64,000 bases of DNA from the NCBI GenBank assembly GCA_963843505.1, contig CAWJKR010000007.1, positions 54,384-118,383 on the forward strand. Direction: 5' to 3'. The translations under genes and the position numbers were made by a program. This DNA comes from Candidatus Aminicenantes bacterium. Lineage in GTDB: Bacteria > Acidobacteriota > Aminicenantia > Aminicenantales > Saccharicenantaceae. Within the stretch, counting starts at the first letter, position 1; each line of letters opens with the position of its first letter. The notes under the pieces are model-generated. The model was not told the DNA's origin and made no database searches. It saw only the letters and a list, made by a program, of their open reading frames with translations. Shown here piece by piece: positions 9,836 to 44,797 of the stretch.

Positions 9836-10421
9836 ATGCGGATGAACGAGACGGAGAAGGAGCTCATCGACATGGTTCTCTCCGGCCGCACCGAGGCCTT
9901 CGAGCCGCTGGTCACCCCCTACAGGGACCGGCTCCTCGCCCTGGCCACCCGGCTGACCCGCGACCGCGAGGAAGCCCTGGAGGTCGCCCAGGAAGCCCTG
10001 CTCCGGGCTTTCCGCTCGCTCGGCCGCTTCGACGTCTCCCGCTCGTTCCGGAACTGGCTTTTCCAGATCGCGGCCAACGAGGCCCGGGACCGCTATAGAA
10101 AGAAAGTCGCGGGAGCGGGCGGCCTTCGGCGAGGTGGCCGGGCGGGCGCCGTCCGCGGCAACCGGGCTGTCTCGGACGGATCCGGAAGCCGGGCACGATC
10201 GGAGCGAGCTGCGGGCCGGCATCATGCGCTCGCTCGACGCGCTCAGTCCGCGGGAGAGGGAGGTTTTCGTGCTCCGGGACCTCGAGGAGCTCGACATCCG
10301 GGAGACGTCCCGGGTGCTGGGCTGTTCGGCGATCTCGGTCCGGGTCAACCTGTCCTCGGCGCGGCGCAAGCTGCGCGAAGCCATCCGGCGGGACTTTCCC
10401 CATCTGGAGGAGAAACGATGA
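9836..10421 (+). CDS. ECF RNA polymerase sigma factor, frameshifted
   Basis: Region 2 (AQEALLRAF...FRNWLFQIAAN) and region 4 (LSPREREVFVLRDLE...SVRVNLSSAR). Confidence 0.85.
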
Positions 10422-10936
10422 CGTGCCGAAAGGTCCGCAAGCTCATTCCGCTCATCGCCGGCGACGATCTGAGGCCCCGGCTCGCGCGCGCCGTCCGCGC
10501 CCATATCGACGCCTGCCCGGGCTGCCGGGCGGAGCTCGAGGGGTTCCGGGCGGCCCTGGCCGAGGCCAAGGCCGCGGCGAGGGCGGAAAGCGTTCCGGAG
10601 TGGGGCGGGGGCGAATGGAACGCCCTGATGGCCAGAGTGGCCGCGGAAGCGAAGGGAACCGGCAAGAGCGCCGGCCGGCGCCGGCATGCGTGTCCCGAGG
10701 CCGAGCTGGGCCGCGGCTTCGGCCCTCGGCGCCGTGATCGGGCTGGCCGTTCTCTCCGTCCTTTTAAGAGGCCCGTCGCCGCGGCCGGAGGGGCGCCGGG
10801 CGGAAGCGGCCTGGTCATCGCGTCGGAAAACCCCCGGCAGGACAGGGTCTCCATCACCATGGTCTCTCCGGAGACCGGGCTCCAGGTCGTCTGGTTCCTC
10901 GACAAGAATTTCGATTACAAAGGAGAACAGGAATGA
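10418..10936 (+). CDS. zf-HC2 anti-sigma factor with TM helix, frameshifted
   Basis: MTCRKVR...HIDACPGC zinc motif; hydrophobic WAAASALGAVIGLAVL segment; ATGA overlap with the sigma gene. Confidence 0.75.
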   Translation: MTCRKVRKLIPLIAGDDLRPRLARAVRAHIDACPGCRAELEGFRAALAEAKAAARAESVPEWGGGEWNALMARVAAEAKGTGKSAGRRRHACPEAELGRGFGPRRRDRAGRSLRPFKRPVAAAGGAPGGSGLVIASENPRQDRVSITMVSPETGLQVVWFLDKNFDYKGEQE

Positions 10937-32579: not shown

Positions 32580-33895
32580 AGCGGATCGCCGTCATCGGGC
32601 TGGCCCTCTTGGGGGCCTGGTCCTGCGCGACACTGCCCCCCGCGCCGCCCGCGTACTTCGTCGAGGACCTGCCGGCGGAGGCCACGATGAAGCTGCGGCT
32701 GGACGACCGCATCGCGGCCGAGGACGCCTGGGACGCCCTCAAGTCCGGGCGGCCCGAGCTGGCCAGGAGGTACCTGATGAAGCTCGGCACGGCCAGCCCC
32801 ATCCGCGAAGCGGGCCTGGCCTACGCGGACCTCCTCTCGGCCGATCTCGCGGCCGCCGAAGCGCGGTTCAAGTCCTCGATCGCGGGGACGCCGGGCATGG
32901 TCCCGTCGCGCGTCGGCCTGGCCCAGATCTACGAATCCCGGCGCGAGCGGGACAAGGTCTTCGCCGAGTACAAGGCCATCCTCGAGCTCGATCCCGGCAA
33001 CCGTTGGACCGCGCCGCGGTACAAGGCCCTCCGGGACGACCTCGTCAAGGACGCCTCGGCTTCGGCCCGCACCGCGCTGGCCGCGGGCAACCGCGAGACC
33101 GCCAAGCGGGAATTCCTGCGCGTCCTGTCCTTCGACCCCGATTCGACGGACGCCCATCTCGAGCTGGCCCGCATCTACCGGCAGGAGAAGAACACGACCG
33201 AGGCGCTCGCCCAGTTCCAGGCGGCCATGTCAGCCGGCACGGCGGACAAAGCCCTCCTGCGGGAGTACGCGGAATTCCTGGCCGAGTCGGGCGAGCTCGG
33301 ACAGAGCCTCGACGTCCTCGAGAAGCTGGCCGGCGCCGAGCCGAAGGACGCGGCCGTCGGCAAGCGGGTCGAGGAGCTCCGGGCCAAGCTGGGCGTCTAC
33401 GAGATCCCCAGCCAGTATGACGGGATCCCGGCCCTCGAGGCCATCACCCGCGAGGACCTGGCCGCGCTGATCGGGGTCAAGTTCGGGGACGATCTCGGGG
33501 CGCCCGGGGCGCGGACCGAGATCCTCGTCGACATCGCGACGTCCTGGGCCCAGCGCTACATCGTCACCGTCGCCTCGCTCGAGATCATCAGGGCCTCCGT
33601 GAACCACACCTTCCAGCCGCGGCGGATCATCAACCGGGCCGAGCTGGCCGACGCCGCGGTCCGGCTCATCGGCGTCCTTCAGGAGCGGGGGGCGCGGTTC
33701 GTGCCCCTGGTCGAAGAGAGGCGGATCCAGGTCGCCGACGTGGCCCCGGACAATGTCTACTATCCCTCCATCACCAAGGCCCTCGCCTACCAGATCATGA
33801 CCCTCAACCCGGAGCGGAGATTCGAGCCCGAGGGGATCGTCTCCGGCGAGGAGGCGATCCGGGTCATCGACATCATCCAGAGACTGGCCAAGTAA
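32573..33895 (+). CDS. TPR lipoprotein with SLH-like C-terminal repeats
   Basis: Lipobox AWSC; TPR helices; FQPRRIINRAELA and FEPEGIVSGEEA. Confidence 0.65.
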   Translation: MVKRIAVIGLALLGAWSCATLPPAPPAYFVEDLPAEATMKLRLDDRIAAEDAWDALKSGRPELARRYLMKLGTASPIREAGLAYADLLSADLAAAEARFKSSIAGTPGMVPSRVGLAQIYESRRERDKVFAEYKAILELDPGNRWTAPRYKALRDDLVKDASASARTALAAGNRETAKREFLRVLSFDPDSTDAHLELARIYRQEKNTTEALAQFQAAMSAGTADKALLREYAEFLAESGELGQSLDVLEKLAGAEPKDAAVGKRVEELRAKLGVYEIPSQYDGIPALEAITREDLAALIGVKFGDDLGAPGARTEILVDIATSWAQRYIVTVASLEIIRASVNHTFQPRRIINRAELADAAVRLIGVLQERGARFVPLVEERRIQVADVAPDNVYYPSITKALAYQIMTLNPERRFEPEGIVSGEEAIRVIDIIQRLAK

Positions 33896-33906
33896 GGGTG
33901 AGCGGC

Positions 33907-34532
33907 GTGGACGAAATGAACGGAACGATCGAGCTCGCGGAGGCCCCCGCCGCCGGAAAGCGCCGGCCCGAGATCCTCCTCCTTCCCAACCTCCTGTCCC
34001 GTCCTGCGGATCCTGCTGACGCCGGTCTTCGTCCTGCTGCTCGTCCATGACAAGCTCTGGCCGGCCTTCTATCGTCTTTCTGGCGGCCGGAGCCACCGAC
34101 GCCCTCGACGGTTTCACGGCCCGCGCGCTCAAGCTCAAATCGAACCTGGGGCTGTGGCTCGACCCGATCGGCGACAAGGTCCTGCTCACCGCGGCGTTCG
34201 TCGTCCTGACCCTCCCGGCCCTCGGCCTGCCGAACACGCTGCCCGTGTGGCTGACGGCCCTCTGCATCGGCCGCGACCTGGCCATCGCGCTCAGCGCCCT
34301 GATCATCATGGCCCTCCGGGGCAAGCGCACTTTCCGCCCCGTCCTCACCGGGAAGGCCAGCACGGTCTGCCAGGTCTTCCTGATGTATTTCGTGCTCTAT
34401 CTGAACGCCGCGGGCAAGTCCCCCCAGTCCCTGGGCTGGTTCTACGTCCTGACGGCCCTGCTTACGGCCGCGTCCTTCGTCCAGTACGTCTTCGTCGGCG
34501 TCCGCATGCTCCGGGAGCCCCGCACATACTAG
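33907..34532 (+). CDS. CDP-alcohol phosphatidyltransferase family protein, frameshifted
   Basis: PNLLS..R; DALDGFTAR...LGLWLDPIGDK signature. Confidence 0.88.
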
Positions 34533-34604
34533 CGCCGGATTTCCTCAGCCGGTTTCGGGTCCGGATAGTCCCATGAGTCTCCTCTGCATCGCTGTTTTGC
34601 TGTT

Positions 34605-35543
34605 CTAGAACAGGCCGATCTTCACGCCGATTCTGAACGTGAATCCGCCCAGGTCGAGGAAGGCCTTCCTCACGCCGAAGGGACTGTCATATCCGTATTC
34701 TGGCGGGAAGGATGATAATACGATCTTCTCATGCCGCACATCCCAAATGTAGTCAGCATCGCCGACAAGATGATAAAGAAAGCCATCAAGAGTTAGATCT
34801 TGAGTTTCTTGAAGAATCCCATTCCCGTCGAATATATCTATGTGGTGCAGTTGACTGCCTTCGAAGGATTTAATTTTCGCAACCCTCCAGTCGCCAGCTA
34901 TTATTAAAGAAACCCTTTTGTTAAGAATATACTCGAGAGCGATTCCGCCGTGGTACCCTATCTGTTTGCCCGTCACGTCGGTATAGTGCTCGCCTATAAA
35001 ACTATGATCACTAGGCAATTGGAAAACATAGGACAAGGTTTGTTCAATTCGCGCTTTATAGTAACCAATGCCTCCATTAGCAATGAGATTAATCCTGGAT
35101 ATGATCGGCACTGCATAACTTAAGTTGAATCTTATCGGAGCGGATACGTGGATGTCCGAGGCCAGGGTGTTGTTCATGGTCTGTGGTAATCCGGATTGGT
35201 AACCAAACATGGTATGGGTCAAAACGCTGATACCGGAGAAATGCGCTGGACCGGATACGGCAATGCCGATACTAAGGCCCCGCCAGACATTCCACCTTAG
35301 CTCAGCTTGCCAGTCTCTGAATCGCGTCGGCAATGGAAGGTACTCGCCGGCGACGGCCCCGGGTTCAGTATTCCGAAGCCCATCATAGGCCGAGTTGAGG
35401 GAGACGAGAGTCGTGTTTATATCGCCGACCTTAACGGACCCGAAGCCCTCGTTGAAAAGGAGACTGAAACGTGTTTGAGCGAAAGAAAGTGAGCCACAGA
35501 ATAGCAATGCCAATACGAATATCAGCCCATATCTGAACCTCAT
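34605..35543 (-). CDS. Outer-membrane beta-barrel protein (OmpA/OMP_b-brl-like with long loops)
   Basis: Signal peptide ending SFA-Q; amphipathic strands; terminal GVKIGLF; GGAG RBS. Confidence 0.65.
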   Translation of the reverse strand: MRFRYGLIFVLALLFCGSLSFAQTRFSLLFNEGFGSVKVGDINTTLVSLNSAYDGLRNTEPGAVAGEYLPLPTRFRDWQAELRWNVWRGLSIGIAVSGPAHFSGISVLTHTMFGYQSGLPQTMNNTLASDIHVSAPIRFNLSYAVPIISRINLIANGGIGYYKARIEQTLSYVFQLPSDHSFIGEHYTDVTGKQIGYHGGIALEYILNKRVSLIIAGDWRVAKIKSFEGSQLHHIDIFDGNGILQETQDLTLDGFLYHLVGDADYIWDVRHEKIVLSSFPPEYGYDSPFGVRKAFLDLGGFTFRIGVKIGLF

Positions 35544-35623
35544 CAATAGCTCCTTGTGCCTCTTGATATATCTCCGACGCCCCATGATAGCGAGTCTTCC
35601 ATCTAAATTTCAAATACTAGGGG

Positions 35624-37362
35624 TTAATCAACTCTGACGGCGGCGACAAGTGTCTTGGTCGATTCGCCATCCGCCCTATACGCACGCACATAAAAATAGT
35701 AATAACCGGGAGCGACGTTGTCCGACATTACGTAACTTGTCGTATTGGCGGGGACTGTATCAAGCAACTGAAAAACATTCCCGGACTTTAAATAGATCTT
35801 GAACCCGCTCTCGTTATCTGAGTTATCGGTCCATGTTAACGTTATTTCGTAGTTGCCACCATTCTCTGCAACGGTGCCGTCGAGATCTGATGGCGCATCG
35901 GGAAGAACAGGGACCGTATAAACAAGGGCATTGTAAGCGTTTAGCCGCCCGTGTGATTGGGCCTTTCCGAGCAGCGCGCCAAGACTATTCACGCTTTTAA
36001 GCAATATCGTCTTGTTTTCCCACCAACTTAGCCCAGGTCGTTGACTCCAAAGAAGCGCGGCGACTCCAGACACATACGGAGCCGCCATAGACGTGCCTGC
36101 ATGATACTGATAGTCGTTACCCCGCTTAGTGCTAAAGATATTATATGATTCTTGGTCAGCGTCCGTTCCCCCCGGCGCTCCTAGGTCAACCGAATATTGG
36201 CCATAATTAGAAAAACCAGATAAAACGTCATCGTAGTCGGTAGACAAGACGGAGATGATGTTGTCCAAGTCATATCCAGAGGGATAATGCGGGTAGATAT
36301 CGTTGTTTTTACTTGAGTTGCCTGCTGCGGCAACAAATAGTATGCCGCTAGTTTGTGCTCTGTCTATCGCCGAGAAAAGCGCAGCCGAATAAGGGAGGTG
36401 CCAGCTGGCGTTAATGATGTTGGCTCCGGCCACGATTGCGTAATCGATCGCGTGAATTGCGTCGGCTGCTTCGCCATCACCTCTCCAATCGAAAATCTTG
36501 AGTGCCATTAGCTTAACATCCCAGCAGACGCCCGTAACTCCGGTGCCGTTATTTCCCTCAGCCCCAACGATGCCCGCAACATGTGTCCCATGATAATTTT
36601 CGGCACCGCCTGGTACAGTTGGATCATCGTAATCGTCCATCGGGTCATTATCTTCATGATATGGTGGCGCATAGCCCCTATTAAAATCCCAACCCACCCA
36701 ATCATCTATATATCCATTTCCATCATTATCAATCCCGTCAGCCTTATATTCACCCGACTCCGATGAATTCATCCAAATATTGGCATCGAGATCCACATGA
36801 TTATGGTCAATTCCAGTATCGATTATCGCTACGATGACCTCTGAGCTACCTGTGTTAATTTCCCAAGCCTCAGGGCTATCAATATCCGCGTCTATCGTTC
36901 CCCCCTGATCGCCTCCATTGTTGAGCCCCCATAGCGATGAAAAATATGTATCGGCGGGAATAACATCAAGGTGTACTTTGAAATTCATCTCTGCATATTC
37001 AACCAATGGACATGAACGGATAAGTGAAAGGGCCCGTTCTACTCCAATTGACTCCGGAACCCTAACGTGGAATAAATTTGGGTCCCCTAAAAAGGATCGT
37101 TCGTTCTCATTGAATCCTGTCCAAGCGGCTGCAGCAATCTCCCCGCCATGATAGCTAATGATGCTTCCTTGGAGAGACCCAAGTTCCTGGCGAACGAGGG
37201 CCGGGCTAATTGCCGACTTGAACTTGATGAGGATTTCGTTAGGAACTGCCTCCACCGCCGAAATCAGGCTTCCCTGGCCGGAATTGCTCGTTCCTCCAAT
37301 AAGAAGAGAAAAAGCTGCAAAAACGAATAAGAGGCTACTACCAAATCATTTTGTTTAAGCAT
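35624..37362 (-). CDS. Secreted S8 subtilisin-like protease with a C-terminal FN3 domain (one-base frameshift in the leader)
   Basis: Catalytic triad IIDTG, HGTHVAG, GTSMAAP; DNDGNGYIDD insert; FN3 WTDNSDNESGF...YVRAY; RBS AAGGAGGT before the ATG at 37362. Confidence 0.9.
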
Positions 37363-37378
37363 TTTACCCACCTCCTTA

Positions 37379-38677
37379 TTAAAACAGTCTGATCCTTAAT
37401 CCAACTAGAATTGAATAACCACCCAGGTCGAGATTTGCTTTCCTTATATCTCTTATGGAACTGATGCCGCCCTCGATCGGTCTCGTCTCTCTTACTGCCA
37501 GTATTTTGTACCGTGAACCGATAAGAAGGTCTTCTGCGGAATAGGAATAAAGAATTCCCGACCATTGATGTGATGTTGTATCCACGAGATTGCCTCCGGC
37601 ATCATATGAACTCGAGGTCCCTTTGGCAGTCCCTCGCAAATGGCCAGTCTTAGCAATCCTCCATTTGGTTTCAACGACAAGGGCCAACTTATTGGTCAGA
37701 TTGGCGCTTAAGTCGAAACCACCATGAAAACCAATCGGAAACGAACGACTTAGATCCAGAGTACCAACTCCTTGAGAATGGCTGCCCAGGGGAAATTGGA
37801 TATCAGTTTCCCTCGTGAGCTTATATTTCCCTGGATAATATCCCGCTCCAGCAAGAGCAGATATGTTCACAAGGCGACTAATTATTACGGAATTGCGAAT
37901 AGATAAGAGCACTGATAAATTGGCATCAACAACATGTCTTTCGAAAAGGGTAGTTGCTTGTGCTCCAGCATCGCCCATGACTGAATAGGTGATGGAACTG
38001 TCATTGGAAAGACGAACTGGCCCCAGCATAGCGACTGCACATGTCCAGCGCTTGGCTAGCCGGTATCCGATTTCTATTCCCAGGGTTTTCGTAGAGCTGG
38101 GTATCGTTTCTAGGCCGCCTGAGATATATCCGGGGTGAGTTGTTCTTAGATATTCGAAATAAGAATTGTTATTGTACGAATCAATAGCATTGTTCGGATC
38201 GCCGATGGCAAACGAGCTTATCTGCCCAAAAAAACTCAGAGAAAAGCGTAGAAAATTGGCCGAAACGGACTCATTCTTACCCTCTGTATTGTATGGACCA
38301 TAGAAGCCACTAAATATTCTCATTTTATTAGAAAACACTAAGAAAGTGTCGGTTAAAACGTTCCTTTGAAAAAAATGCGAGGGCCCGTATACGAAGATGC
38401 CGAGACTATGCCGTTGCACGAAATTCCATCTGATCTCAGCTTGCCAATCTTTGTACCGGATTGGCAGAGGAAGGTAGTCGCCGACGACTGTCCCGGGTTC
38501 AGCATCCCGAAGCCCATCGTAGATCGAGTTCAATAAGACAAGGGCCGTATTTAGATAGCCGACCTTAATGGACCCGAAACCCTCATTGAAGACCAGGCTG
38601 AAACGCGTCTGAGCAACTGAAAATGATCCGCAGAACAACAGTAAAGATAGGAAGGCCAGCCAATATCTGCTTTTCAT
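37379..38677 (-). CDS. Beta-barrel protein: truncated paralog of 34605-35543 fused to a second barrel
   Basis: First ~110 aa clearly similar to the 35543 gene; remainder is a related barrel ending VGLRIRLF. Confidence 0.6.
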   Translation of the reverse strand: MKSRYWLAFLSLLLFCGSFSVAQTRFSLVFNEGFGSIKVGYLNTALVLLNSIYDGLRDAEPGTVVGDYLPLPIRYKDWQAEIRWNFVQRHSLGIFVYGPSHFFQRNVLTDTFLVFSNKMRIFSGFYGPYNTEGKNESVSANFLRFSLSFFGQISSFAIGDPNNAIDSYNNNSYFEYLRTTHPGYISGGLETIPSSTKTLGIEIGYRLAKRWTCAVAMLGPVRLSNDSSITYSVMGDAGAQATTLFERHVVDANLSVLLSIRNSVIISRLVNISALAGAGYYPGKYKLTRETDIQFPLGSHSQGVGTLDLSRSFPIGFHGGFDLSANLTNKLALVVETKWRIAKTGHLRGTAKGTSSSYDAGGNLVDTTSHQWSGILYSYSAEDLLIGSRYKILAVRETRPIEGGISSIRDIRKANLDLGGYSILVGLRIRLF

Positions 38678-38977
38678 TATTAGCTCCCTATCTCCTGATG
38701 CCTAATGCTAATATTTACCAAGGTATGGCGCTGCTCGCGTGAAAAGAGCTTATGCACGCAATTGTGCCTCCTTCCATCTGCTCCGTGAGATGTCCGAATC
38801 CAAACAAATCGAGATGGACAAACAAACCCCCTGATTCCCATGCGCTGACAACATCCGACAACCCCAACTTCTTCCGGAAGTCGAGGGCACATTCCAGCGA
38901 GGGCCCGATCTTCATGGCCGTCCGCAACTCCTTCTACTAATAAAAACCCGTCCGGAAGGCAAAACTTCTCACTCAGT

Positions 38978-39005
38978 TTGAAACTTTCTGTCCGACTGAT
39001 ATAGT
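38978..39005 (+). promoter_or_regulatory. Sigma70-type promoter of the island ECF gene
   Basis: TTGAAA-N16-TATAGT with extended TG; ATG 10 nt downstream. Confidence 0.45.
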
Positions 39006-39015
39006 TGTCAGGGAT

Positions 39016-39531
39016 ATGGCTGACTCGATTGACGAAACCCTGAAAGAAATAGCCCCTCGCATAAGGGCTGAACTCAATAAGATTGGGTATTTCAGCCATA
39101 TTCCCGAAAGCGACGATCTGCTGCAGGAGACCCTTATTCGGGTCTGGAAAGCCCTTAAAAATCGGGACGGCAAGCTGGAATATATAAATTCATACGTAAA
39201 AAAGGTCGTATTTTCGGTTTATATTAATGAGGTCAACAGAATTCGCCGAGAAAAACAGTTGGTGGCCTCGGCTGGAGGCCAGGGGTTTTGCGACCAGGAA
39301 ACGGGCCGAGGCCGCCTGGATCCAGCAGGCCTCATTGAGGGAGCCATTATGGCATCGCTTTCGGCCCTATCGGAAACGAAGAGGCGTGTCATCAGACTGC
39401 ACATTGAAGGTTTCACCTTATCGGAGATCGCACTCTCCAACCACTGGTCCTTTAGCAAGGTCCGCGATAACTACTATCGCGGAATCGAGGAATTGAGACG
39501 AAGGTTGGCAAGGAAAGGGCTCTTGGGATGA
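39016..39531 (+). CDS. ECF RNA polymerase sigma factor
   Basis: DDLLQETLIRVWK (region 2); LSETKRRVIRLHIEGFTLSEIA...YYRGIEELR (region 4). Confidence 0.85.
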   Translation: MADSIDETLKEIAPRIRAELNKIGYFSHIPESDDLLQETLIRVWKALKNRDGKLEYINSYVKKVVFSVYINEVNRIRREKQLVASAGGQGFCDQETGRGRLDPAGLIEGAIMASLSALSETKRRVIRLHIEGFTLSEIALSNHWSFSKVRDNYYRGIEELRRRLARKGLLG

Positions 39532-40223
39532 AGACAAGCTGGACGGATGTCGAGCGAATTATTCGGGATCATCCAGAGCGGGCAGGAGCCGGGCATGCAT
39601 GCCCAAAGCCAGAGGATCTGGCCCTCCTGGTAGAGGAAGAGATCGGGCGGCGGGCCAGGAAAAGGATAATGAAACATGTCGCGAATTGTCCTGATTGCTC
39701 GATGCTCCTCAAGTCTCTTCTTTCGCTCTCGAGAGCGGTCGATGAGCTCACTGCGAAGACAGAAGTCGACCGTCGCCCCTTGTCGGAATCCATGCCTGAC
39801 GGTGCGAGGCCAGCTCGCTTCATTCGGAGCCGGAGGTTGGCGATAACGGCCATTGCCGCTATTGCCGGCATTACGATCATCGCCGTATCGATAACGAGAT
39901 TTTCGAAGCCCTATGCGCTTAGAGGAAGAACGGGAAGGATCGAGCTTATCGCTCCCAAGATGGGAGCCGTGCTTGAAGCCGGTCGCATAAGATTTGAGTG
40001 GAAGGCTGTCCCCGCCGCATCGCGTTATTTCATCGAGATCTTCGGCGGCTCTCTGGAATTGGCCTGGCGCAGTGAGCCTCTCTTCGGGCCTCAAACAGAG
40101 TTGGCCGTTGGATCCACCGCGGCGGTCCAGAGAGGGGGGACATATTTCTGGAAGGTCACGGCCGTTCTGGCGAACGGCCAGGACGTCGTCTCGAAGTCCA
40201 GGAAATTCTCGATCCGGCGATAG
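39528..40223 (+). CDS. zf-HC2 anti-sigma factor with TM helix and extracytoplasmic Ig/FN3-like domain
   Basis: HACP...HVANCPDC; TM LAITAIAAIAGITIIAVSI; LRG; FEWKAV...YFWKVTA; ATGA overlap with the sigma gene. Confidence 0.8.
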   Translation: MKTSWTDVERIIRDHPERAGAGHACPKPEDLALLVEEEIGRRARKRIMKHVANCPDCSMLLKSLLSLSRAVDELTAKTEVDRRPLSESMPDGARPARFIRSRRLAITAIAAIAGITIIAVSITRFSKPYALRGRTGRIELIAPKMGAVLEAGRIRFEWKAVPAASRYFIEIFGGSLELAWRSEPLFGPQTELAVGSTAAVQRGGTYFWKVTAVLANGQDVVSKSRKFSIRR

Positions 40224-40229
40224 GCTCTC

Positions 40230-43112
40230 CTAATATTCCCCCGTCAGAACGTAGGAGGCCCAAAAGAAGGGATGCGCGAATTTTGTTTTCCGCATCGCTG
40301 CCTTTGCCGCCTGGAGAGCCTTGGCCTTTCCCTCGTCGCGGAAATAGGCGTCGTAAAAGTATCTCATGAAGACCGAGCCCGATTCGTCGCTGATCGGCCA
40401 GAGGGTTGACAGTACCGATCTCGCCCCTACGAACAAGAAAGCCCGGGGCAGTCCGAGATTCCCTCCATTCTCCACGATCTTGCCCCGCCCCGTTTGACAC
40501 CCCGAAAGAACGACGAGGTCGGCTTTCGTTCTAAGACCGTACATTTCCGATACCTGCAGATAACCGTCCTCTCGGCTGTCGGGACCTGGCGACAAGAATA
40601 GTGATGAGCGCAAGGGATTTCTGTCATCCGAGAAGGCATGACAGGCGAGATGTATCAGCCGATAAGCGGCGAGGTCGAGGCCCTTAAAGGCTCCTTCTGT
40701 AGCCTCTTCGCCCCGGAAAATATCGATCTTTTTCCGGTCGATCCTCGACGCGAGATCCGAGACCTCTCTCTCGATAAAAGGAAGGGGATCGTCCGAAAAT
40801 CCGTCTCTCTGATAGATTTCATCGAGGATCTCGGTGGACGAGGAGGCCATTGAATTCAGGGAATGACTTTTTGACGCCGCCCTATTCGACACGCCAAAGG
40901 CCAGCGCCGTCTTCGCGTACACCGGACTCCGGATTTTTCCCGCCCGAGCCAGCGAGGCGGCGGACGGTGCGTAGGAGACTGTGAGCCGGTCATTGACAAA
41001 GACGGGTCCCGCGGGTCCAGGGGCCGGTAAGGCCAAGGCCTCGAACGGCAAGCGAAAAAGCACGCCGTCCGGCACGATGACCAACCGGTCGATGCCGGCG
41101 GGGAGGAGCGCCATCGCCGGCGCCAAAAGTGATCTATAGAGCTTCTGGGCAGCGGGGAGGCCATCCGCCTCGGCAAAGGAGGGGTCCTCGAGGAAGCTCA
41201 AGAAGCCGATGACCGAGTCCGTCAGCTCGGCCGCCGGCGGCATTTCGATCAGATCGAACGAAGTTCTGCTCATGCAGATAAGGGCGGATTTTGACCCGCC
41301 CAAAACGTATTCGAGGATCGCTGTGCGGTCGTCCAGAATATTGTCCTGAAGGTAGGCCGGGGGGACAGGGGATGATCCGGGGTCATCGGGAGTGGCGTCC
41401 CGGTTGAATACCATCATGTCCAGAAGATCGTCGATTTGGACGATCCTCTTCTCGATCGACATGCGGTCTTCCCGCCCAGGATCCCCTGAGGAGATCGATT
41501 TCAGGAGCTCGGTCCTTTCGCTGCTGAGCTTGGCCTCTTCGGCATCCCTCCTGGCTTGTTCAACTCGCGCCGGCGGCTCATAAGATCTCTCTCGGAACTG
41601 GCGATAGGACCTGGCCCTCAGGGATTCCGAAAGACGGAAGATCTCACGCCCGTATACGCTTCCCTCCTTGCCTCTCGACAATTCCAGGTAAAGGCGGACC
41701 AAGGCCTGGAACGGCTCCCCGGCTCTCCTTACGAATTCGGCACGGTGGACGTCGCTGGCGATGCCGGAGAGCCCTTGGTCGACGGCGCTTAGCGCGAGAT
41801 CGTAAAATCCGAGGGCCTGATCGAGATGTCTTGCGGCCTCTGCGCAGCGTCCCAGGCCAAATGCGGCGCTCATGGCAAAGAAGGAGTTATCCGTGCGCCT
41901 GGATATCGAAAGGGTCTCATTGAAGTAAACCTCGGCTTCGCTCAATGCCCCGGTCCGAAGGGCCCACTCTCCCAAGGTCGAGAGGATCCTGGCCAAGGCC
42001 GGAGAATCCGTTTCGGACCTCCGGGCCTCCCTCAGGGTGGACATAAGGATCCGGCGGGCTTCTTCGAGAAGGCCGCGATCGATGAAGACTCTGGCCACGC
42101 CGGCGAGGGCTTCAAAGCGAAGGAATCCTTCGTTGTTCGGATTAATGGAGAAAAGGTACGAGCTGAAGCAGTCAAGCGCCTTCTCGGTGAGATCCTCCAG
42201 CGGCCTTCTGTCTTCCAGAGCCAGGAACAGGTTGCCGAGACCAACCAGCATCGAGGTCTCGAGTGCCCGTTCCGAGCCCGCGGGAATCCGCGATACGGCG
42301 TCCAGCAGATATTCGCTGGACTTATCATAATCGCCGAGCGCGAAGTACATTTCCGAAATATTGTTCAAGCATGCGATCTGGTCGCTATTGTTAGGCGACC
42401 CTTCCATCTCGATGAGGGCCCTTAAGAAGAAGCTCAGCGCGCGAGGATGATCGCTCTTCATGGCATAGTATGCGCCAATTCTCCTCAACGCTCTGGATGC
42501 CTCTAACCTGTAGTTCAGTGATCGCGCCAATTCCAGGGCTTTAAGGCTTAAAGCTAAGTATTTCTCTTGGCTGTTCTTGTCACGGAGATAATTGAGACTC
42601 CAATCACCCAAGATCTTGAGTTGATACGAGGGACTAGCGATCCGGAGAGCCAGCTCATACGCCTCTTCGAATGCCCGGGTCGACGCGGCCATGTCACCGA
42701 GGGACCGCAGGTTGAGCGCTTGAACGATAGCCTTCTGAATCGACAATTCCTCTCCAAAGGACACCGTTTCGGCCGGCAGATGCGCCCGACCGGCCCAATC
42801 ATGCGCGGTTTGGGCGCTTACAATGGCTTCTTCGATGCGCCCTGAGAAAATCAGAACATGTCCAAGGATATGAAAGACCCGGGCCCGTTCTTTTGCGGGA
42901 AGCTCGGTATCGGCAAGCGTTTTCTCGTAACAAGCGACGGCTTCTGCGTAGCTGCCCTTCTCTATGAGGCCTAGCCCGATCGCCAGGGCCAGGTCCTGAT
43001 TACCGCCAACATTGGAATCTGGGGGTCCGTCTGAAACCGACGAACACACCGTTGATAACAGGGCCAACGCGATAATGACCCATCCTCGTTCTTTGACGAA
43101 TCCTAGCAGCAT
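40230..43112 (-). CDS. TPR-CHAT (caspase HetF-associated) protease with N-terminal signal/TM
   Basis: Hydrophobic leader; TPR repeats; IVPDGVLFRLPFEAL, HLACHA (His), LVVLSGCQTG (Cys), STLWPISD and HPFFWA motifs. Confidence 0.92.
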   Translation of the reverse strand: MLLGFVKERGWVIIALALLSTVCSSVSDGPPDSNVGGNQDLALAIGLGLIEKGSYAEAVACYEKTLADTELPAKERARVFHILGHVLIFSGRIEEAIVSAQTAHDWAGRAHLPAETVSFGEELSIQKAIVQALNLRSLGDMAASTRAFEEAYELALRIASPSYQLKILGDWSLNYLRDKNSQEKYLALSLKALELARSLNYRLEASRALRRIGAYYAMKSDHPRALSFFLRALIEMEGSPNNSDQIACLNNISEMYFALGDYDKSSEYLLDAVSRIPAGSERALETSMLVGLGNLFLALEDRRPLEDLTEKALDCFSSYLFSINPNNEGFLRFEALAGVARVFIDRGLLEEARRILMSTLREARRSETDSPALARILSTLGEWALRTGALSEAEVYFNETLSISRRTDNSFFAMSAAFGLGRCAEAARHLDQALGFYDLALSAVDQGLSGIASDVHRAEFVRRAGEPFQALVRLYLELSRGKEGSVYGREIFRLSESLRARSYRQFRERSYEPPARVEQARRDAEEAKLSSERTELLKSISSGDPGREDRMSIEKRIVQIDDLLDMMVFNRDATPDDPGSSPVPPAYLQDNILDDRTAILEYVLGGSKSALICMSRTSFDLIEMPPAAELTDSVIGFLSFLEDPSFAEADGLPAAQKLYRSLLAPAMALLPAGIDRLVIVPDGVLFRLPFEALALPAPGPAGPVFVNDRLTVSYAPSAASLARAGKIRSPVYAKTALAFGVSNRAASKSHSLNSMASSSTEILDEIYQRDGFSDDPLPFIEREVSDLASRIDRKKIDIFRGEEATEGAFKGLDLAAYRLIHLACHAFSDDRNPLRSSLFLSPGPDSREDGYLQVSEMYGLRTKADLVVLSGCQTGRGKIVENGGNLGLPRAFLFVGARSVLSTLWPISDESGSVFMRYFYDAYFRDEGKAKALQAAKAAMRKTKFAHPFFWASYVLTGEY

Positions 43113-43148
43113 AGAACGCCCTGACCCTCGACGTGTATATCCACGAAT

Positions 43149-43177
43149 ATCATAGCCAAGGCCGGCAGAATCAGCAA
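43149..43177 (-). promoter_or_regulatory. Sigma70-type promoter of the CHAT gene
   Basis: TTGCTG-N17-TATGAT on the minus strand. Confidence 0.5.
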
Positions 43178-43556
43178 GGCCCTGGGGACCTTCCGGGGTT
43201 TAATATCAGTGAGAAGAAATGCGATGGGGAGTGTTATATCGTCGTCCTCACTGAAATCATCATCGCCGGCAGTCCAATGCAGGTCCCGGCAATTATCTGG
43301 ATCCCGTGCTCATCCTCCGAATAATCAAAGCACTTGTAGCAGCGGAATCGCCTCATTATAGTTACAGCCCTAAAATGGTCGCCTCCCCGCTTCCATGTGC
43401 TTTCACGGCAGCCGCAAGATCGCCCGCTGGCAGTGATGATGAGGCATCGGGCCGACGGGTCAAAGGCAGCGCGTCCGTCTGACGTTCACGCCTCTTTGCT
43501 TTTGCAGGTCGGAATGATAAAATGCCGCCGAAATGCCCGCACCGAGGAGTCCCCGC

Positions 43557-44797
43557 ATGAACCCCGACCTGACCTATCGATAAGCTGGCCCGCCGGATCG
43601 AAAAGTACCGCGACGAGATGGTCGACCTCCAGATGACGCCTGTGCGCCATCCCGGCCATCGCCCCCTCGAGCGGCGGGGAGGGCGAGGCCAAGAAGGCCG
43701 ATTTCCTCGTCGATTGGCTCCAGGCCAACGGGTTCGTCGACATCACCGTCGTCAAGGCCCCCGACCTCGACGCGCCCGTCGGGCTATCGCCCCAACATCC
43801 TGGCCTATTACCGGGGCGGGAGCCAGGCCCGGACGGTCTGGATCATGACCCACATGGACATCGTCCCGCCCGGCGAGATGTCGCTCTGGCGCGGCGATCC
43901 GTACAAGGCCTGGGTCGAGAAGGGCCGCATCCACGGCCGCGGCGTCGAGGACAACCAGCAGGACATGGTCGCGTCGCTCTTCGCCGTCAAGGCCCTGCGG
44001 GCCGAGGGCATCGCCCCGGCTTCGACATCGGCATCGCCCTGGTCGCCGACGAGGAGACGGGGAGCCGGAAGGGCATCGATTACGTCCTCCAGAGCCACAA
44101 GGTCTTCCGCCGGCAGGACCTCATCATCGTCCCCGACGCCGGCAACGAGACCGGGACGATGATCGAGGTCGCCGAGAAGAGCCTCCTCTGGCTCAAGTTC
44201 AAGACGCTCGGCAAGCAGGCCCACGGCTCGACGCCCGAGAAGGGCATCAACAGCTTCAAGGCCGCCAGCTTCTTCATCGCCGCCCTGAACGACCTCTACA
44301 AGCTCTACCCGGGCCGGGACCGGCTCTTCGATCCGCCCATCTCGACCTTCGAGCCGACGAAGAAAGAGGCCAACGTCCCCAACGTCAACACCATCCCCGG
44401 CGAGGACGTCTTCTACATGGACATGCGGATCCTGCCCAAGGTCAAGGTCCAGGACGTCCAGAACGCGATCCGGAAGATCGCCGCGGGGATCGAAAAGAAG
44501 TTCAAGGTCAAGATCCACACCGAGATCCAGCAGAAGGCCCCGGCCGCCCCTCCGACGCCGGCCCAGGCCCCCGTGGTCATGGCCCTCAAGAAGGCCATCC
44601 AGGCGGTCTACAAGCAGGAGGCCCGGGCCATGGGCATCGGCGGCGGCACCGTGGCGGCCGTATTCCGCCGGGCCGGGTTCCCCGCCGCCTGCTGGTCCAA
44701 GCTCGACGAGACGGCCCACCAGCCGAACGAGTACTGCATCATCGACAACATGGTCTGCGACGCCAAGGTCTTCGGCCACATCTTCCTGCAGGAGTAG
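43557..44797 (+). CDS. M20 family metallohydrolase (ArgE/DapE-like), frameshifted
   Basis: HMDIVPPG, GRGVEDN, ADEETG and AHQPNE motifs. Confidence 0.85.

Follow-up and report, generated by a model that had tools for sequence, protein, structure and literature searches.

How might a bacterium pass an envelope signal to its transcription machinery through a caspase-like protease? The question is raised by a locus in a 64,000-nucleotide stretch of DNA (the window; G000:C7:54384-118383, contig CAWJKR010000007.1) from a Candidatus Aminicenantes bacterium, whose metagenome-assembled genome comprises 3.33 Mb in 15 contigs and is 58% complete. The locus encodes a TPR-CHAT protease convergent with a sigma factor of the extracytoplasmic function (ECF) type and its membrane anti-sigma factor, next to an S8 subtilase and two putative barrel proteins. 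A first-pass annotation had described these six genes and proposed, by analogy with type III-E CRISPR loci, that the CHAT protein clips the anti-sigma and releases the sigma factor to induce the barrel/S8 operon. All six genes and their motifs were found where it had placed them (Table 1). Its interpretation held in part: the linkage of CHAT, anti-sigma and sigma and the export-type leader of the CHAT protein were upheld, whereas the barrel/S8 operon did not prove to be a conserved partner. What was observed directly, namely gene content and domains, residue conservation, synteny, export signals and the island status of the segment, is consistent with the reading that we favour and to which we give a little less than an even chance: the module would be an extracytoplasmic signalling system of Acidobacteriota/Aminicenantes, a two-polypeptide counterpart of DdvA/DdvS in which site-1 cleavage of the anti-sigma would fall to the free CHAT protein, the arginine R132 being the candidate site. 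The module probably passes envelope signals to transcription.

Conservation of the CHAT/anti-sigma/sigma trio

A scan of one genome per species yielded 14 related genome loci, 13 of them labelled Aminicenantes, Aminicenantia, Aminicenantales or Acidobacteria. As judged by tblastn, every one of the 14 keeps the gene order of the window, with the CHAT gene converging on the anti-sigma gene and the sigma gene beyond it (CHAT -> <- anti-sigma <- sigma), and each has a sigma homologue 30-51% identical to that of the window. Metagenomic loci with an orthologous CHAT (L023-L026, L043) carry the anti-sigma in 5/5 cases and the sigma in four, the fifth contig ending first. The remaining 18 of the 23 metagenome loci, with more distant CHATs (26-43% identity), had neither an anti-sigma nor a sigma at E <= 1e-4. 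Within the source genome itself, an ECF sigma gene stands beside three of the four CHAT loci. The C8 paralogue (L006, G000:C8:66800-76200) repeats the convergent trio at native GC, and the C9 paralogue (L007, G000:C9:133100-145800) is a frameshifted copy of CHAT, sigma and anti-sigma; on C10 (G000:C10:248500-249750) a sigma/anti-sigma pair of the same family occurs without a CHAT.

Across the phylum, the anti-sigma profile matched at least 69 of 301 sampled genomes, a tally that includes two unpublished genomes (G024 and G152) and, the initial screen having been stricter, gives a lower bound. We then took 20 other Acidobacteriota genomes picked for strong anti-sigma matches (2.5-8 Mb, with 1-21 CHAT genes each). 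In these, 22/38 anti-sigma matches lay <= 3 kb from a CHAT domain, eight of them in the opposite orientation seen in the window and 14 running in the same direction as the CHAT, and 22/132 CHAT matches had an anti-sigma neighbour within 3 kb. Because the genomes were selected by their anti-sigma and kin are not independent, these fractions describe the association rather than test it; even so, adjacency of CHAT and anti-sigma genes by chance would be rare. The co-occurrence of CHAT, zf-HC2 and ECF genes on which the earlier proposal depended is thus borne out by the 14/14 genome loci, the 5/5 metagenome loci, two paralogous loci and the 22/38 matches.

The TPR-CHAT protein as a predicted exported protease

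The CHAT domain scored far above its Pfam cut-off of 24 (206.7 bits), and the motifs HLACHA and LSGCQTG are present in the translation. The dyad formed by H825 and C872 is invariant across 16 aligned orthologues, so that the intact 960-residue protease of the first-pass annotation stands. With both the domain match and the His/Cys dyad of a CHAT-domain caspase fold, the protein is a predicted cysteine protease. Its gene is convergent with that of the anti-sigma, the two stop codons lying 6 nt apart. The orthologous family comprises about 70 clusters at 40-79% identity and a length of ~960 aa, and its named members are Aminicenantes or Acidobacteriota.

The hydrophobic leader noticed previously is of the export type. 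A basic n-region followed by a hydrophobic core of ~13 residues is found at the N-terminus of 14/16 orthologues, and the other two look like mis-called starts. At ~13 residues the core fits a signal peptide rather than a transmembrane (TM) helix, and we infer that the protein is exported to the periplasm. A cysteine follows the core in the window's subclade, where a lipoprotein form is possible.

The ECF sigma factor and its membrane-bound anti-sigma factor

The sigma protein passes the NCBIfam model for ECF sigma factors (Table 1), while its Pfam matches to r2 (21.5 bits) and r4_2 (20.5 bits) both fall just under the gathering score. Against the PDB, SigE/SigH chains matched residues 5-165 at E of about 1e-3. 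With sigma2 and sigma4 as its only domains and a family-model match, the protein belongs to group IV (ECF) of the sigma-70 factors.

The anti-sigma gene follows directly, its start overlapping the sigma stop by 4 nt. The Pfam zf-HC2 score of the product (18.0) is below the cut-off of 22.2. Residues C25, P26, H50, C54, C57 and R132 are nevertheless invariant in 19/19 aligned anti-sigmas, as are W158, E170, F172, Y206 and W208 of the ectodomain in the same 19-sequence alignment. The H50-x3-C54-x2-C57 motif, a helical N-domain and the position of the gene directly after that of the sigma identify the protein as a member of the zinc anti-sigma (ZAS, zf-HC2) family, which is predicted to bind and hold its cognate sigma. 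The 4-nt overlap, the TIGR02937 match and the invariant CHCC residues together confirm the translationally coupled ECF/zf-HC2 pair that had been annotated.

Hydropathy placed a single TM helix at about residues 104-122 with a basic stretch ahead of it, a positive-inside arrangement. In an AlphaFold2 model, N-domain helices (residues 5-80) and the TM helix are followed by a low-confidence linker (119-133) that includes R132 and by a beta-sandwich (138-231). The sandwich was modelled at a predicted local distance difference test (pLDDT) score of 85-92, and Foldseek matched it to FN3 domains with TMt of 0.6-0.73; a single-sequence search of the anti-sigma against the PDB gave no meaningful match. 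Of the TM helix and outer Ig-like domain assigned to this protein by the first-pass annotation, the helix was therefore recovered and the outer domain is more precisely FN3-like than generically Ig-like.

A proposed route from the envelope to the sigma factor

These data allow us to propose how the module might work. At rest, the ECF sigma would be held at the inner membrane by the CHCC-zinc anti-sigma, whose FN3-like domain would face the periplasm, and the separately encoded TPR-CHAT protein would be exported to that same compartment. Both the sigma/anti-sigma pair and the CHAT protein would be made from housekeeping-type promoters. An envelope signal read by the TPR array would activate the His825/Cys872 dyad, and the CHAT protein, as site-1 protease, would clip the anti-sigma in the short linker next to its membrane helix, which is modelled as disordered and contains the candidate site, the invariant Arg132. 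An RseP-type site-2 protease would then cut the TM helix and free the sigma; an RseP-like M50 protease gene is present in the genome at C5:459645-460883. The likely output in most relatives would be a divergently encoded six-cysteine protein with an ECF-like promoter, to which the window's subclade would have added a divergent operon of a secreted S8 subtilase and one or more putative outer-membrane barrels.

Related caspase-fold enzymes have arginine specificity. For separase, the site is given as ExxR in PMC11506125. A complex prediction that paired residues 95-960 of the CHAT protein with residues 123-231 of the anti-sigma, each supplied as an alignment and run without controls, reached 0.11 and 0.07, the mark being 0.32, which speaks neither for nor against binding.

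In the canonical pathway of regulated intramembrane proteolysis (RseA/DegS/RseP and relatives; summarised in PMC11506125), a single-pass anti-sigma is cut on the outside by a site-1 protease and then by an M50 site-2 protease. The module shares with that pathway a single-pass anti-sigma and an RseP-like gene. It differs in its candidate site-1 enzyme, a cysteine protease of the caspase fold that bears a TPR sensor and whose gene adjoins that of its presumed substrate.

Relationship to known systems

The first-pass annotation had compared the locus to Csx29/Csx30. An analogous logic may operate here without Cas genes; the closer precedent, however, is DdvA/DdvS, in which a periplasmic TPR-CHAT has already been proposed as a site-1 protease (PMC11506125). 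According to that paper, DdvA of Myxococcus xanthus is a CHCC-zinc anti-sigma bearing a TPR-CHAT domain in the periplasm, and its authors propose signal-induced cleavage of the juxtamembrane linker in trans by the CHAT domain, followed by RseP. DdvA-like fusions are reported there from Myxococcota and one Comamonas only. Both systems pair an ECF sigma with a single-pass CHCC-zinc anti-sigma, each has a TPR-CHAT that keeps its His/Cys dyad and lies, here by prediction, in the periplasm, and the proposed logic, CHAT at site 1 and then RseP, is the same. In DdvA, however, the TPR-CHAT is fused to the anti-sigma and dimeric, whereas in the module it is encoded apart, as an exported protein of its own, and a small FN3-like ectodomain takes its place on the anti-sigma; the two genes lie on opposite strands in the window and in 14/14 relatives. 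The present module further differs in its host group (Aminicenantes/Acidobacteriota), in having no defence genes nearby and in its extra conserved six-cysteine protein.

A profile of the CHAT family matched one CHAT chain in the PDB, 8rot_B (991 aa), the only one among the best 60 of 132 profile matches; no CHAT chain was found by a single-sequence search of the PDB. From its length and the residue numbers in PMC11506125, 8rot_B (the chain of 8rot/8rw5) appears to be DdvA.

ECF54 of Actinobacteria (Huang et al. 2015, cited in PMC7826278 and PMC8999054) offers a second comparison, made by gene context alone. According to those sources, ECF54 loci conserve a TPR-CHAT (0.71 per ECF), a subtilase (0.68) and a beta-sandwich protein at position +1; regulation by proteolysis has been suggested, and the group is described as having no anti-sigma. 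CHAT, subtilase and a beta-sandwich +1 protein recur in our locus. Here, in contrast, a ZAS anti-sigma is translationally coupled to the sigma, and the phylum is a different one.

In the type III-E craspase (Cas7-11, Csx29, Csx30, CASP-sigma), as described in PMC10028731, a TPR-CHAT cuts a sigma-inhibiting protein and thereby frees an ECF-like sigma. The protease-to-ECF-sigma logic proposed for the module is the same. Craspase, however, is cytoplasmic, RNA-guided and bound to Cas7-11, and Csx30 is no membrane ZAS; the protease here carries an export-type leader, no array was detected in the window and no Cas model was matched by the seven proteins scanned, in agreement with the earlier statement that the island has no Cas genes or arrays.

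We found no description of a split CHAT/anti-sigma arrangement in the CHAT-ECF-anti-sigma and ECF54 literature, with the ECF classification supplement covered only in part, so that other CHAT-linked ECF groups may be in print. The idea of CHAT as a site-1 protease is already in print for the fused DdvA form, and the split arrangement is the new element. DdvA is the only studied anti-sigma with a caspase-like sensor/protease, and its signal and self-cleavage are unproven. Because protease and substrate are separate here, with small soluble domains (an FN3 domain with a short linker, and a Cys-rich partner of ~80 residues), the split system is directly testable in vitro or in a heterologous host. 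It would also tie in the unexplained CHAT/subtilase context of actinobacterial ECF54, and its association across Acidobacteriota suggests that caspase-fold proteases are a common, overlooked ECF input in a phylum that dominates soils and sediments.

More speculatively, and we consider this unlikely, Acidobacteriota and especially Aminicenantes would possess a widespread extracytoplasmic caspase-type pathway, in which a free TPR-CHAT in the periplasm, as dedicated site-1 protease, cuts an FN3-bearing zinc anti-sigma at its invariant juxtamembrane arginine, a sigma-induced six-cysteine protein of new fold feeds back on that protease as a ligand or securin-like inhibitor, and subtilases form a cascade in some lineages. 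If that were true, DdvA would be a rare fusion of a system whose split form is ancestral and general.

A small secreted six-cysteine protein

Comparison of the related loci revealed a fourth conserved gene, whose product (~115 aa) combines a signal peptide with six cysteines that are invariant (C-x-C-P-x-C-C-x-G-x-C ... C-terminal C). The gene is divergent from the CHAT gene in 9/10 genome loci with enough upstream DNA and likewise in L023 and L026; in L021 it lies beside the sigma gene instead. The mature protein was modelled at pLDDT 91-96. Its fold had no match against the PDB by Foldseek at E <= 0.001, the best Z of a wide VIA-align search was 3.0, the best ESM Atlas feature score was 0.76, and neither Pfam nor NCBIfam had a family for it. 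The family is narrow, with 32 representatives among 1.84 billion proteins.

The window retains the last ~35 codons of this gene as an open frame, and with only the 3' end remaining the gene was invisible to the first-pass annotation. Relative to L023, ~260 nt are missing, and the DNA that is left is 79% identical to L023:40-144. A contig of the public run X1 (43220-43700) continues upstream of 43220, reading ...DCQCPNC, and a close relative therefore keeps more of the gene. As a separate observation, L014 (9116-9712, minus strand) encodes a six-cysteine protein with an N-terminal extension of ~80 residues and a CPKC motif ahead of a hydrophobic segment, which suggests a membrane-anchored variant.

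The six-cysteine protein bears on an alternative in which the CHAT protein is coupled to the anti-sigma without being its site-1 protease. The FN3 domain would then dock or inhibit the CHAT, the substrate would be the six-cysteine or another envelope protein, and binding would alter the stability of the anti-sigma; within such a scheme, the six-cysteine protein could serve as a pro-ligand, or could exert feedback as a pseudo-substrate resembling securin. The steady divergent position of the gene beside CHAT, and a narrow family that is modelled confidently in no known fold, speak for this alternative. The protein is, however, not needed for the trio to persist, which it does without an intact six-cysteine gene in the window and in the C8 and C9 paralogues. 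We regard this alternative as unlikely overall, though a substantial competitor to cleavage of the anti-sigma by the CHAT protein.

Divergent subtilase and barrel genes

On the other side of the sigma gene lie, as previously annotated, an S8-FN3 protease gene and two related genes for putative beta-barrels (Table 1). BarrelA matched Pfam OMP_b-brl at 16.7 against a cut-off of 28.7, and its nearest ESM Atlas clusters are OMP_b-brl with a score of 0.98; barrelB had no Pfam family match. By tblastn the two are 54% identical over the N-terminal ~150 residues (1-149) and 29% over the C-terminal part, and both combine a signal peptide with a terminal F. In the subtilase, a fervidolysin-like N-prodomain scored 21.2 (cut-off 21) and a C-terminal fn3 domain 23.5 (cut-off 25). 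Its open frame extends to 37345, and an ATG at 37363 with a hydrophobic leader stands in another frame. Run X3 includes a ~97% identical contig with one extra T behind 37345, which restores the frame of start and leader; the defect thus probably arose in the assembly or is peculiar to the strain.

The divergent genes recur in the closest relatives. In L024, whose CHAT is 87% identical, S8 (62%) and then a barrelA-like gene (73%) run divergent from the sigma gene, with no barrelB between sigma and S8; in L023 (CHAT 74% identical), a divergent S8 occupies the DNA from the sigma gene to where the contig stops. In the C8 paralogue, a 965-aa S8 and then an S9 peptidase are divergent from sigma, and near the C9 paralogue a low-GC S8, 46% identical to that of the window, and a barrel lie about 7 kb from the trio beside an AraC-type gene. 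Homologues of S8 and the barrels are absent from 14/14 orthologous genome loci. There, the genes beyond sigma (GH95, PAS-GAF-HD, amidohydrolase, PLD, TPR, OmpA, BrkB and TRCF) have no common theme. The conserved trio must thus work without an S8 nearby, and so S8 appears to be a recurrent but optional companion of it, with the S8/barrel operon conserved, as far as the compared loci indicate, only in the closest subclade. The output assigned to the module by the first-pass annotation, a barrel/S8 operon, accordingly fails as a general feature, being limited to the two closest metagenome relatives, with S8 also in the paralogues.

A contig of run X7 joins position 35674 to 38833 with 169 other letters between them, S8 and barrelB being missing. 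Because this is a variant without those two genes, the cargo region is fluid among close relatives.

Given these positions, the subtilase might itself act on the anti-sigma or activate a CHAT zymogen in a cascade of the kind suspected for ECF54, the CHAT protein being downstream or parallel. Besides the S8 genes divergent from sigma in the window, L023, L024 and the C8 paralogue and the related S8 at C9, PMC7826278 reports for ECF54 loci 0.68 subtilases and 0.71 CHAT proteins per ECF. Elsewhere in Acidobacteriota genomes we found at least 5 CHAT-S8 pairs <= 700 bp apart, without an FN3-type anti-sigma, among the 150 of 191 S8 matches listed. CHAT-subtilase pairing may thus be a wider theme, as in ECF54. 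Against a required role for the subtilase stands its absence from every orthologous genome locus, and we think such a role quite improbable compared with direct cleavage by the CHAT protein. CHAT and S8 genes 0.5-2.4 kb apart, again with no anti-sigma of the FN3 type, were also seen in G221:C40, G221:C69, G184:C358, G174:C17, G011:C140 and G057:C2.

Candidate promoters and intergenic elements

Promoters were read by eye, apart from a consensus scan of the region. The best site of that scan precedes the sigma gene, and the 14 related loci have similar TTGAAC/TTGCAA-N17-TAxxAT sites upstream of theirs (read by eye). A candidate ahead of the CHAT gene has counterparts in L009, L011, L017 and L018, where comparable TTGCC-N17-TATGAT/TAGAAT sites occur. 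The six-cysteine gene is preceded by a different sequence: in 8/9 loci scanned, a (T/G)GTCTTT(A/G)T element stands 10-30 nt before its ribosome-binding site, and L018 has GTTCTTAT in its place. This element, together with a hexamer upstream of it, resembles an ECF promoter. With housekeeping-type sites ahead of the sigma and CHAT genes and an ECF-like element ahead of the six-cysteine gene, the arrangement suggests that the sensor parts are constitutive and that the six-cysteine protein is the conserved target of the sigma.

The intergenic region between sigma and cargo contains a 54-nt block that is nearly invariant in the window, L024 and L023 while its flanks diverge. A short reading frame rich in Cys, which L024 keeps open and L023 does not, overlaps the block. 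Used as a regulon probe in its own genome, it matched itself and one further site with two mismatches, equal to the control. It may be a sigma-dependent promoter, an operator or part of a small open reading frame.

The promoter sites also help to judge the possibility that the CHAT, S8 and barrel proteins are mere secreted or envelope outputs of the sigma regulon, serving nutrient scavenging or envelope remodelling, with a generic envelope-stress route freeing the sigma from its anti-sigma. Casas-Pastor et al. (PMC7826278) stress that conserved neighbours of ECF genes may be targets rather than regulators, and a secreted S8 with a prodomain and putative outer-membrane barrels do look like effectors. 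The CHAT gene, however, has a housekeeping-type promoter candidate and not the element of the six-cysteine gene; the fused DdvA places CHAT in the sensor itself; and the tight convergent pairing with the anti-sigma is kept while other neighbours vary. A purely effector role for all of these proteins has, in our view, a slim chance.

Weighing the proposed mechanism

Several points weigh against the proposed route from CHAT to sigma. Each biochemical step, including cleavage of the anti-sigma, and likewise the promoter assignments and the regulon, is deduced from sequence, and the promoter readings are themselves inferences made by eye. The hexamer that contributes to the ECF-like reading, GGAA(A/C)T-like and ~16 nt upstream of the element, occurs in only about 5-7 of the nine loci. 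The element of the small gene (GTGTCTTTAT) had 0 matches in the window at up to 1 mismatch, and no shared motif was seen connecting the sigma to the S8/barrel operon, the same operon that the orthologous genome loci do without. In the 20 selected genomes, 16/38 anti-sigma matches have no nearby CHAT, some of these lying at contig ends. The sequence similarity to DdvA is weak (E 1.8e-6) and confined to 115 positions round the dyad. Cleavage by the CHAT of DdvA is itself unproven, its signal being unknown and dyad mutants behaving like wild type without it (PMC11506125). Finally, with a truncated small gene and an S8 leader in the wrong frame, this assembly's copy of the module may have decayed in part or been mis-assembled.

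Boundaries of the island and state of the assembly

Table 1. Features of the locus, with positions counted from the first letter of the window.
Feature	Positions	Strand	Description
Low-GC island, ~9.0 kb	34487..43514	.	Between pgsA-like gene and M20 peptidase gene
BarrelA, 326 aa	34605..35585	-	Signal peptide; C-terminal ...IGLF; weak OMP_b-brl match
S8 subtilase	35624..37255	-	Pfam S8, 196.5 bits; DTG, HGTH and GTSMA triad motifs in translation
BarrelB, 432 aa	37379..38677	-	Signal peptide; C-terminal ...IRLF; diverged barrelA paralogue
Conserved 54-nt block	38832..38885	-	Sigma/cargo intergenic; nearly invariant in window, L024 and L023; flanks diverge
Candidate promoter, sigma-70 type	38978..39005	+	TTGAAA-16-TATAGT with TG; before sigma gene; best site of the region, 10/12
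ECF sigma, 171 aa	39016..39531	+	TIGR02937 sigma70-ECF, 48.9 against cut-off 42.9 (NCBIfam)
Class-I zinc anti-sigma, 231 aa	39528..40223	+	CHCC site; TM 104-122; R132; FN3-like ectodomain 138-231
TPR-CHAT caspase-like protease (predicted), 960 aa	40230..43112	-	Dyad H825/C872; Pfam CHAT PF12770, 206.7 bits; many TPR families
Candidate promoter of CHAT, sigma-70-like	43149..43177	-	TTGCTG-17-TATGAT; by eye; not in consensus-scan list
3' remnant of six-cysteine gene	43214..43324	+	Last ~35 codons; tblastn E 1e-4; open frame without start

The genes described above occupy a low-GC segment (0.42-0.62 inside, about 0.67 outside). Homology to the same-genus genome G167 ends at 34486 and picks up again at 43515. 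The pgsA-like and M20 flanks are only 66 bp apart in G167 and ~140 bp apart in G207, a genome of the same family, and since they nearly adjoin in both, ~34487-43514 is a 9-kb insertion. A profile search did not find the anti-sigma in G167 or G207. By its composition and position, then, the segment reads as a horizontally acquired island. Direct repeats, an integrase or a tRNA were not seen at its ends, and an Rfam search of 33500-44500 at E <= 0.1 gave no match.

Although DdvA/DdvS govern CBASS and type III-B CRISPR-Cas (PMC11506125) and the segment has the marks of a horizontally acquired island, it is very improbable that the module is an anti-phage regulator of that type turning on a defence island, for a PADLOC scan of the seven proteins matched no defence-system model beyond a generic subtilase and weak TPR/BovA hits, no CRISPR-like array was found in the 64-kb window, and the genes alongside the trio in relatives have housekeeping roles or are unrelated.

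The host genes on either side of the island are each frameshifted (33900-34100 and 43558-44160). We compared contigs of four public runs, each of which covers the island only in parts. In three runs, contigs and window disagree through single-base indels, located at 43577/8 and 43639/40 in the 5' end of the M20 gene. The assembly thus seems to carry homopolymer-type indel errors, and apparent pseudogenes in this genome are therefore to be read with caution. Elsewhere in the window, at about 10221-10528 (G000:C7:64604-64911), lies a second sigma/anti-sigma pair, unrelated to the island, whose ECF sigma scored 54.1 bits against Sigma70_r4_2 and whose anti-sigma scored 35.2 bits against zf-HC2.

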